Assembly: GCF_002854065.1 (NCBI RefSeq)
Contig: NZ_CP024147.1
Length of the DNA: 64,000 nucleotides
Direction: 5' to 3' (one strand)
Source of the DNA: Escherichia coli
GTDB lineage: Bacteria > Pseudomonadota > Gammaproteobacteria > Enterobacterales > Enterobacteriaceae
Part shown: in pieces, positions 49,051 to 51,315 of the stretch
Numbering within the stretch: the first letter of the stretch is position 1
Layout: each line of letters begins with the position of its first letter
The notes under the pieces: model-generated
Seen by the model: only the letters and a program-made list of their open reading frames with translations
What the model was told of the DNA's origin: nothing
Database searches by the model: none
Program-made: the position numbers and the translations under genes

Positions 49051-51315
49051 ATGGCGCACCCCGGACGTCATTTTTTTGCCAGCGCGCGCGGGCGATTGCT
49101 GCTTTTGAATTTGCTGGTGGTGGCGGTGACGTTGATGGTCAGCGGCGTGGCGGTAATGGGCTTTCGTCATGCCAGCCAGATGCAGGAGCTGGTGCAGCAG
49201 CAAACGGTGGATGATATGACCGGCAGCCTGAATCTGGCGCGCGACACGGCAAACGTGGCAACGGCGGCGGTGCGATTGTCGCAGGTGGTGGGAGCGCTGG
49301 AATATAAAGGCGAAGCCGAGCGGTTGCAGGAGACACAGCGGGCATTAAAAAGCTCGCTTGCACAACTGGCGAACGCGCCTTTAGCGCAGCAGGAAGCCGG
49401 GCTGGTGACGCGCATCATCACGCGTAGCAACGAACTGCAAACCAGCGTCGGTGGAATGCTGGAGCGCGGGCAAAGGCGGCATCTGGAGCGCAACGCGCTG
49501 TTAAGTTCGCTGTATCAAAACTTAAGTTATCTGCGGCATCTGCAAAAAGTCACTCACTCGCAAGATGATATTTTGCTTAACGAGATGAACCGACTGATTG
49601 TTGCCGCTATTGCCACCCCCGCGCCGCAGGCGATTATTCATCAACTGGTCGGGGTAATGTCTGCGTTGCCGACCCACAGCGATACGCCGTTGGTTAACAC
49701 GCTACTCAATGATTTTAATCGTGAACTGCGTAAACTCGCGCCGCTTTCAGCCGCTCTGGAGCAAAGCGATCTGGCAATCAGCTGGTATATGTTTCACATC
49801 AAAGCGCTGGTGGCGATCCTCAATGGCGACATCAACCGTTACGCCGAACAGGTGGCGACGCTCTCCGGTCAGCGTGTGGCGCAAAGTTACCAGGATTTGC
49901 GCTCCGGCGAGAGGGTGATCATGATTTTCGCCCTGTTAGCGGTGGTGATCACCGCGTTTGCCGGCTGGTATATCTATCGCAACCTCGGCACTAACCTGAC
50001 GGCGATTTCCCGCGCCATGAGCCGCCTGGCGTACGGCGAAGCGGACGTCACTTTTCCGGCGTTACAGCGGCGTGATGAGTTGGGTGAACTGGCGCGCGCC
50101 TTTAACGTTTTTGCCCGCAATACCGCGTCACTCGAACGAACCTCACGGCTGCTAAAAGAGAAGACCACGCAGATGGAGATTGCCCAAACTGAGCGGCAGG
50201 GGTTGGAAGAGGCGCTATTACACAGCCAGAAACTGAAAGCGGTCGGGCAACTGACGGGCGGGCTGGCCCATGATTTTAATAATCTGTTGGCGGTAATTAT
50301 TGGCAGCCTGGAACTGGTGAACACGGACTCACCCGACGCGCCGCGAATACAGCGGGCGCAGCAAGCTGCCGAACGTGGCGCGCTACTGACCCAGCGACTG
50401 CTGGCGTTTTCCCGTAAGCAGTCCTTACATCCGCAATCCGTTGAACTGAAAACATTGCTGGAAGAGTTAAGCGAATTAATGCGCCACTCCTTACCGGCAA
50501 CGCTGGCGCTGGAGATTGAAGCGCAGTCTCCGGCGTGGCCCGCGTGGATTGACATCAGCCAACTGGAAAATGCCATCATCAACCTGGTGATGAACGCCCG
50601 TGACGCGATGGAAGGGCAGACGGGAATCATCAAAATTCGTACCTGGAATCAGCGCGTTACTCGCAGCAGTGGGCAGCGTCAGGACATGGTGGCACTGGAG
50701 GTCATCGATCATGGCAGCGGTATGTCGCAGGCGGTGAAAAGCCAGGTATTTGAGCCATTCTTTACCACCAAACAGACGGGCAGCGGCAGCGGGCTGGGTT
50801 TGTCGATGGTCTATGGTTTTGTGCGCCAGTCCGGTGGGCGCGTTGAAATTGAAAGCGCGCCGGGGCAGGGGACAACGGTCAGATTACAGCTTCCCCGCGC
50901 GCTGACGGCGGCGAAAAACCTATCGCCAGCGGCAGTAGAACAGGCTTCTGTCAGCGGCGATAAACTGGTGTTAGTGCTGGAGGATGAAGCCGCGGTGCGC
51001 CAGACCATCTGCGAACAGTTGCACCTGCTGGGCTATTTGACGCTGGAAGCAAGCAGCGGCGAACAGGCGCTGGATCTGCTGGCGGCATCAGCAGAAATCG
51101 ATATTTTTATCAGCGATTTAATGCTCCCCGGCGGCATGAGCGGCGCAGAAGTGGTCAATGCGGCCCGCAAACTTTACCCGCACCTGACGCTGCTACTCAT
51201 CAGCGGTCAGGATTTACGCCCCAGCCATAACCCCGCGCTGCCAGACGTGGCGCTGTTGCGCAAACCCTTTACCCGTGCGCAGTTGGCGCAGGCGCTGGGG
51301 CAAATTGAGGGATGA
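49051..51315 (+). CDS. hybrid sensor histidine kinase (2 TM + periplasmic helical domain, HisKA, HATPase_c, C-terminal receiver; no Hpt)
   Basis: MAHPGRHFFASARGRLLLLNLLVVAVTLMV; H-box GLAHDFNNLL; G-boxes DHGSGM and GSGSGLGLS; receiver LVLEDE...FISDLMLPG; GGAG 6 nt before ATG at 49051. Confidence 0.85.
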   Translation: MAHPGRHFFASARGRLLLLNLLVVAVTLMVSGVAVMGFRHASQMQELVQQQTVDDMTGSLNLARDTANVATAAVRLSQVVGALEYKGEAERLQETQRALKSSLAQLANAPLAQQEAGLVTRIITRSNELQTSVGGMLERGQRRHLERNALLSSLYQNLSYLRHLQKVTHSQDDILLNEMNRLIVAAIATPAPQAIIHQLVGVMSALPTHSDTPLVNTLLNDFNRELRKLAPLSAALEQSDLAISWYMFHIKALVAILNGDINRYAEQVATLSGQRVAQSYQDLRSGERVIMIFALLAVVITAFAGWYIYRNLGTNLTAISRAMSRLAYGEADVTFPALQRRDELGELARAFNVFARNTASLERTSRLLKEKTTQMEIAQTERQGLEEALLHSQKLKAVGQLTGGLAHDFNNLLAVIIGSLELVNTDSPDAPRIQRAQQAAERGALLTQRLLAFSRKQSLHPQSVELKTLLEELSELMRHSLPATLALEIEAQSPAWPAWIDISQLENAIINLVMNARDAMEGQTGIIKIRTWNQRVTRSSGQRQDMVALEVIDHGSGMSQAVKSQVFEPFFTTKQTGSGSGLGLSMVYGFVRQSGGRVEIESAPGQGTTVRLQLPRALTAAKNLSPAAVEQASVSGDKLVLVLEDEAAVRQTICEQLHLLGYLTLEASSGEQALDLLAASAEIDIFISDLMLPGGMSGAEVVNAARKLYPHLTLLLISGQDLRPSHNPALPDVALLRKPFTRAQLAQALGQIEG

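Follow-up and report, generated by a model that had tools for sequence, protein, structure and literature searches.

LmvK, a hybrid histidine kinase of an Escherichia coli island that ends at its receiver, probably phosphorylates LmvR without an Hpt domain

A 64,000-nucleotide stretch of the Escherichia coli chromosome (RefSeq assembly GCF_002854065.1, contig NZ_CP024147.1), referred to here in its full length as the window, carries a genomic island encoding the hybrid histidine kinase LmvK and its response regulator LmvR. The kinase ends directly after its receiver domain and has no Hpt domain, and the analysis presented here suggests that it probably passes its phosphoryl group straight to the regulator. 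The gene order is mdtP-mdtO-mdtN-ytcA-yjcS, followed by the island and then by yjdP-phnP...phnC, and from position 18803 onward the window is 99.96–100 % identical to strain CUWW06; the first 18.8 kb consist of ordinary core genome and IS1 copies. The island system is the OI-167 two-component system LmvK/LmvR (also named RbfS/RbfR) together with its target operon lmuXYZIAK, and, as in strain O157:H7, it is flanked by yjcS and yjdP and includes lmvR, lmuKAIZYX and the LmvR box. The kinase has 743 of its 754 residues in common with O157:H7 LmvK (99 %; DNA identity 98.4–98.7 %) and is 100 % identical to WP_032282009.1. Its length of 754 aa, against 756 aa in O157:H7, is explained by a duplication of three residues (NDF) that is lacking from the periplasmic domain here. 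Further differences from the O157:H7 locus are a frameshifted lmuX and an additional GNAT-like open reading frame (ORF) between lmvK and yjdP. The closest match to the window copy comes from a wastewater isolate, not from enterohaemorrhagic E. coli (EHEC). The names LmvK and LmvR were introduced by Yang et al. (mBio 2023, PMC10128022), who designated the six genes in between lmuKAIZYX and explicitly called LmvK a hybrid kinase with H410 and D692, while a 2024 review lists both the receiver (REC) domain and the two signals of this kinase.

The lmvK ORF (49051..51315, + strand) starts with ATG, is preceded by GGAG 7 nt upstream and comprises 754 codons and a TGA stop. A Pfam scan of the 754-aa product detected HAMP, HisKA, HATPase_c and Response_reg domains (Table 1) and nothing beyond these. 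Two transmembrane (TM) segments are indicated by hydropathy, at about residues 17–39 and 288–308, and these boundaries give a periplasmic domain of ~250 aa. An earlier note on this DNA, made from the sequence alone, had put this region at ~290 aa, but its description of a 754-aa protein with two TM helices that stops after HisKA-HATPase-REC was confirmed, with a HAMP domain to be added. The protein is a hybrid histidine kinase in that its HisKA domain contains the phospho-accepting His407 (codon 50269–50271; H410 in O157:H7 numbering), its HATPase_c domain is present and its fused receiver has a complete active site, consisting of Asp689 (codon 51115–51117; D692 in O157:H7 numbering), Glu644, Asp645, Ser718 and Lys738. 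The solved structure closest to the kinase core is the DHp-CA fragment of CckA (5idj, E = 3.9e-40), and NCBIfam CckA models score about 250–300 bits on LmvK. Residues 376–749, which span DHp, CA and REC, align end to end with the NCBIfam VirA-like model (E = 1.9e-64; 218 bits, cut-off 647). A tblastn search of this cassette against plasmids does not discriminate between models of phosphotransfer, since it recovers a common module, 43–47 % identical, that alpha- and beta-proteobacteria combine with many PAS, CHASE and CHASE3 sensors. Likewise uninformative, with regard to shared recognition, is the lack of a significant BLASTP alignment between the receivers of LmvK and LmvR.

Table 1. Features of the LmvK/LmvR island in the window
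Feature	Residues	Position	Strand	Basis or remark
lmvR, OmpR/PhoB-type response regulator		42172..42879	+	NCBIfam best: OmpR, VirG, PhoB, CreB, TorR, all under equivalog cut-offs; RefSeq
lmuK, PfkB-family sugar kinase		42876..43877	-	NCBIfam PfkB/ribokinase-like; published fructokinase activity
lmuA, class II ketose 1,6-bisphosphate aldolase		43874..44734	-	NCBIfam NF005284, 578 bits, cut-off 406
Island gene		44749..45432	-	NCBIfam NF051472, 439 bits, cut-off 350
lmuZ, RbsB-like periplasmic sugar-binding protein of ABC (ATP-binding cassette) transporter, candidate co-sensor		45487..46428	-	NCBIfam RbsB, E = 1e-43
lmuY, ABC transporter permease		46447..47421	-	NCBIfam ribose-type permease, E = 1.5e-80
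lmuX, ABC transporter ATPase, frameshifted		47418..48937	-	Comparison with CUWW06
LmvR box ATATGA-N3-ATATGA of the lmuX promoter		49010..49024	-	One exact match in the window; 0.09 expected by chance
LmvK periplasmic sensor, helical bimodular/double four-helix-bundle type (predicted)	about 40-287	49168..49911	+	
LmvK HAMP	309-357	49975..50121	+	Pfam PF00672, E = 4.6e-7
LmvK DHp/HisKA, H-box GGLAHDFNNLL	399-458	50245..50424	+	Pfam
LmvK HATPase_c	501-616	50551..50898	+	Pfam, E = 1.9e-21
LmvK C-terminal receiver (Response_reg)	640-749	50968..51297	+	Pfam, E = 1.9e-10
Adjacent GNAT-like ORF, 210 aa, not part of the system		51428..52060	+	RefSeq: N-acetyltransferase

The absence of an Hpt from the kinase, from the downstream ORF and from the rest of the cluster, which the earlier note had pointed out, is borne out by Pfam, by a motif scan, by a fold model and by the neighbourhoods of homologous genes. 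There is no room for such a domain in LmvK, because an Hpt needs about 100 aa, the two linkers in the cytoplasmic part measure 41 and 23 aa and only 5 residues separate the receiver from the C-terminus; the sole unassigned stretch of at least 100 aa is periplasmic, and an Hpt hidden in an unassigned part of the kinase was rejected. LmvK accordingly lacks the Hpt that follows the receiver in tripartite kinases of the ArcB/BarA/EvgS/TorS type, and no stand-alone phosphotransferase gene, as in the RcsC/RcsD, LuxQ/LuxU and CckA/ChpT systems, was found in or near the locus. The HxxKG motif does not occur in any frame of at least 60 aa on either strand between positions 41800 and 52600. No Hpt was recognized among the other island genes, all of which fall into well-known NCBIfam families, or in the rest of the window, whose genes are ordinary named E. 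coli core genes. The ORF adjacent to lmvK, given a length of 220 aa in the earlier note, encodes 210 aa and was also rejected as an Hpt candidate. It shows weak Pfam matches to GNAT and no NCBIfam match, without a confident family in either, while AlphaFold gives it a beta-rich structure (pLDDT 72), for which GNAT enzymes are the only fold matches, all of them weak. This ORF cannot be needed by the system, because O157:H7, where the system works, lacks the 748-bp insertion (51340..52087) on which the ORF lies. Homologues of the ORF with 82–86 % identity are present in Leclercia, Lelliottia and Enterobacter. The next gene, yjdP, encodes a repeat protein whose N-terminal part is hydrophobic and resembles a signal peptide.

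The same architecture is found in distant relatives of LmvK. When 1.84 billion representative proteins were searched with the sensor alone, only 90 matches were returned, mostly fragments, and eight full-length relatives with 21–57 % identity over the matched sensor stretch were obtained. In each of the eight, no more than 16 residues follow the receiver, and Pfam detected an Hpt in none of the nine family members (LmvK included). His407, Glu644, Asp645, Asp689, Ser/Thr718 and Lys738-Pro739 do not vary among the nine. Between HAMP and DHp, 7 of them contain a PAS_7 domain in the cytoplasm, which E. coli LmvK and one distant relative do not have; the enterobacterial 754-aa form is therefore a shortened version of a ~870-aa protein. 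The neighbourhoods of the kinase gene were read at six loci (Klebsiella, Pantoea and four more distant ones). Sugar ABC-transporter genes stand divergently beside the hybrid kinase gene wherever the contig covers that side, an OmpR-type regulator gene is present in the four loci that reach far enough, and two loci also contain lyxose isomerase, aldolase and PfkB kinase genes. In the Klebsiella pneumoniae locus, an AbiEi/AbiEii toxin–antitoxin pair (positions 3446-5127 of locus L003) lies between the regulator and sugar kinase genes, and the isomerase and aldolase genes are missing. No Hpt-family gene, including ChpT- or RcsD-like genes, was found within up to 10 kb of the six loci, three of which are on short contigs reaching less far. 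The possibility that an Hpt is a conserved neighbour of the distant homologues was rejected, the gene 9 bp downstream of one of them encoding an FGGY sugar kinase and the gene downstream in Klebsiella encoding YjdP. The module of regulator, ABC transporter and hybrid kinase is kept down to 24 % sensor identity. As judged from these sequence comparisons, it appears to be old and self-contained, with a receiver retained as a phospho-acceptor and no phosphotransferase travelling with it.

The genes between lmvR and lmvK place the kinase next to its regulatory target. The earlier note had assigned lmvR to the OmpR type, with which the NCBIfam matches agree; VirG is the second-best family of the regulator, after OmpR. 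The transporter binding protein LmuZ has weak matches to ChvE and TorT, far under the cut-offs (42 bits on the TorT model against 200). In lmuX, a 1-bp deletion near position 47694, just before the Walker B motif of the second nucleotide-binding domain, leads to a premature stop at 47618; the deletion is shared by none of the 410 complete island-bearing E. coli genomes and is either a strain-specific pseudogene mutation or a sequencing error. The LmvR box in the lmuX promoter, mapped by DNase I footprinting in PMC10128022, sits 27 bp upstream of the lmvK ATG, and at this distance LmvR bound to the lmuX promoter must overlap the lmvK promoter or leader. At the Rfam gathering thresholds, the island contains no flavin mononucleotide riboswitch and no other RNA element to which the riboflavin response described below could be attributed, and a promoter/terminator consensus scan of the island gave no more sites than shuffled sequence.

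Of 5426 complete E. coli genomes, 410 carry the island, which is found in many non-EHEC strains. Its hosts and sources include horse, pig, chicken, guinea fowl, goat, otter, fresh water and wastewater, a distribution wider than the 'EHEC and O55:H7 only' given by PMC9860305. Outside the island, two IS1-like copies (16002-16765 and 17399-18163), ~91 % identical to IS1X3, lie directly upstream of actP; at this point CUWW06 has a large plasmid-derived tet(A) resistance region instead. The window further differs from CUWW06 by 31 additional bases in phnD (62321-62351) and by G for A in phnF (60059), and both genes are probably intact here, since CUWW06 annotates them as pseudogenes. Rfam matches in the window, all ordinary E. 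coli features, comprise the small RNA sraL (12178-12318, -), the fdhF selenocysteine insertion element (34187-34241, -) and two naRNA4 repeats (31648-31718, +; 61451-61531, +).

The signals to which LmvK is reported to respond are mannose/lyxose and riboflavin. An AlphaFold model of residues 1–375 (pLDDT 83; 25 aligned sequences) is all-helical, and its best Foldseek match is the sensor domain of Vibrio TorS (3i9y; probability 1.0, E = 1e-3, TM-score 0.65 when normalised to the target), followed by TorS–TorT complexes, PilJ and McpS. On the basis of this model, the periplasmic domain of LmvK is a helical bimodular sensor with the fold of the TorS family. PilJ and McpS differ in that their ligand-binding domains belong to chemoreceptors rather than to kinases, share only 8–11 % sequence identity with the LmvK sensor and, in the case of McpS, bind organic acids directly. 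Since TorS perceives its signal through a binding protein and McpS by direct contact with its ligands, the predicted fold would allow either route of signal perception. It was suggested in the earlier note that sensing may proceed through the periplasmic binding protein, and this part of its proposal fits the helical TorS-type fold and the synteny. Published genetics shows that neither the riboflavin response nor mouse colonization depends on the binding protein.

Sugar-loaded LmuZ might dock on the periplasmic domain of LmvK and thereby switch the kinase for the sugar signal, as in TorT–TorS, ChvE–VirA and XylFII–LytS; this is a tentative proposal, to which somewhat less than even weight is given. 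It is favoured by the TorS/McpS type of the sensor and the TorS–TorT complexes among the top Foldseek matches, by the binding protein, permease and ATPase genes that adjoin the kinase gene in every related locus down to 24 % sensor identity, and by the RbsB-like nature of LmuZ, a fold class common to TorT and ChvE. The synteny is, however, accounted for just as well if the transporter is what the system regulates. Moreover, plasmid-borne rbfSR alone, without lmu genes, was shown to confer a riboflavin response on Citrobacter rodentium and on O26, O111 and O103 EHEC, and riboflavin also elicits a response from the purified RbfS protein in vitro (PMC9860305). Deletion of lmuKAIZYX, which removes lmuZ, caused no colonization defect in mice, in contrast to deletion of lmvK. 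LmuZ is thus not obligatory for these functions.

With regard to phosphotransfer, the earlier note left a choice between direct transfer, in which the receiver would be a phosphate sink, and the use of a borrowed Hpt, and these turn out to be the two models of the literature. The former has published support in vitro: purified RbfS phosphorylates purified RbfR in the absence of an Hpt (PMC9860305, whose authors make no mention of a receiver domain). The latter is drawn in Fig. 8 of PMC10128022, in which LmvK acts 'via an unknown Hpt', a step marked as needing evidence. The existence of the system and the gap left by the Hpt are therefore already in print, as is the in vitro support for one of the two solutions.

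Direct transfer from His407 to Asp54 of LmvR, with the receiver serving as a sink and/or docking module in the manner of VirA, is considered the probable mechanism. According to this proposal, the helical bimodular domain would receive the signal in the periplasm and transmit it via TM2 and HAMP to the DHp domain, where His407 would autophosphorylate; the phosphoryl group would then move straight to Asp54 of LmvR, as from VirA to VirG. Phosphorylated LmvR would bind the box between lmuX and lmvK and switch on the sugar operon, and in strains positive for the locus of enterocyte effacement (LEE) would also activate ler. Asp689 of the receiver would be a working phospho-acceptor outside any relay, one that may compete for the phosphohistidine as a sink or phosphatase route, dock LmvR, or both, and thus tune the output. 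Several lines of evidence argue for this mechanism. The window kinase has 99 % identity, the yjcS–yjdP location and the LmvR box in common with O157:H7, and the exchanges H410A in LmvK and D54Q in LmvR abolish function (PMC10128022). The rbfSR plasmid works by itself in other strains, an Hpt is lacking from all nine family members, from the adjacent ORF and from the neighbours of the six loci, and the island is free of HxxKG. Finally, the DHp-CA-REC part aligns with the VirA-like model and the regulator has VirG as its second-best family.

Other observations weigh against direct transfer. The five catalytic residues of the receiver are invariant while sensor identity falls to 21–27 %, and a true phosphorelay would look alike. 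The closest solved kinase core is that of CckA, which uses a separate phosphotransferase. The in vitro transfer was observed with a 10-fold excess of regulator and without reported kinetics, and hence may not be the preferred route in the cell; a D692 mutant is absent from the published LmvK/RbfS work, and the mBio authors prefer an unknown Hpt (PMC10128022). In addition, deletion of lmvK leaves LEE expression unchanged in DMEM (Dulbecco's modified Eagle medium) with mannose, whereas deletion of lmvR changes it, which implies that under some conditions LmvR can be activated independently of LmvK by another phosphodonor.

A multistep relay would lead from His407 to Asp689, then to an Hpt encoded elsewhere, such as RcsD or the Hpt of ArcB, BarA, EvgS or TorS (a ChpT- or Spo0B-like protein is also conceivable), and finally to Asp54 of LmvR. 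This route appears unlikely, although a borrowed core-genome Hpt retains some credibility because the receiver is conserved, the transfer assay contained an excess of regulator and D692 has not been mutated. The hybrid architecture with its fully conserved receiver active site, the similarity of the kinase core to CckA, which relays through ChpT, and the published scheme all speak for a relay, and function after transfer to other enteric bacteria is compatible with an Hpt of the core genome. Against it stand the direct transfer between purified proteins, the example of VirA, which shows that this architecture can work without an Hpt, and the six homologous loci in different genera, none of which is adjoined by an Hpt gene, while a dedicated partner would often be linked. 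To our knowledge, all known Hpt modules of E. coli belong to other dedicated pathways. The more specific notion that a horizontally acquired Hpt-less kinase plugs into a resident E. coli phosphorelay, for instance through the Hpt of RcsD or ArcB, is regarded as rather improbable. If it were correct, a core stress or redox pathway would act as a gate for sugar or riboflavin sensing by the island, and the oxygen dependence reported for LmvK/LmvR function could follow from this as well.

It is most improbable that LmvR is driven mainly by another kinase or by acetyl phosphate, with LmvK acting chiefly as a phosphatase or modulator: the unchanged LEE expression of the lmvK mutant in DMEM with or without mannose, the effect of lmvR deletion and the RbfR DNA-binding assays run with and without acetyl phosphate would fit such a scheme, but deletion of lmvK lowers lmu expression on mannose, growth on lyxose, adherence and colonization and is not complemented by H410A, deletion of rbfS abolishes the riboflavin response, and lmvK and lmvR travel together in every related locus that reaches far enough.

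The biological importance of the system, through which EHEC couples type III secretion to mannose and riboflavin in the gut, has already been published. The present analysis adds the predicted TorS/McpS-type fold of the sensor, the conservation of the module down to 24 % sensor identity and the invariance of the receiver catalytic residues. The two papers disagree on the need for an Hpt, and these results sharpen the questions of the Hpt, of the role of the receiver residue Asp692 and of whether the ligand reaches the sensor directly or through LmuZ.

Among known systems, TorS/TorT/TorR of E. coli and Vibrio resembles LmvK/LmvR in the helical bimodular sensor, as modelled here, the OmpR-type regulator and the nearby gene for a class I periplasmic binding protein. 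TorS, however, has a C-terminal Hpt and a four-step relay, LmvK scores only 138 and 78 bits on the TorS models (cut-offs 676 and 982), and LmuZ, apart from its low score on the TorT model, belongs to a transporter, while TorT is a dedicated sensor protein. CckA–ChpT–CtrA and RcsC–RcsD–RcsB likewise employ hybrid kinases that end at the receiver, and the CckA core is the closest solved structure; unlike in these systems, no ChpT-, RcsD- or Hpt-like gene is linked to lmvK in the related loci, and direct transfer has been shown in vitro. VirA/VirG/ChvE of Agrobacterium tumefaciens, the textbook case of a hybrid kinase lacking an Hpt, has in common with LmvK/LmvR two TM segments that accompany a large periplasmic domain, a receiver at the C-terminus and direct His-to-Asp transfer in vitro to a regulator of the OmpR family, as well as a sugar ABC-transporter binding protein in its regulatory circuit. 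LmvK is homologous to VirA but not an equivalog (218 bits against 647 on PRK13837), and between TM2 and DHp it has HAMP and a 41-residue coiled linker in place of the phenol-sensing linker, the lack of which indicates that it is not a VirA orthologue. VirA nevertheless illustrates how such a kinase may function: His474 phosphorylates Asp52 of VirG directly in vitro, and the receiver is dispensable for phosphotransfer while being both inhibitory and able to recruit VirG (PMC4705274). Sugars act on VirA through ChvE, a transporter binding protein that docks on the periplasmic domain (PMC4705274), and LmuZ, the sugar ABC-transporter binding protein of the LmvK/LmvR island, is a candidate for the corresponding role.

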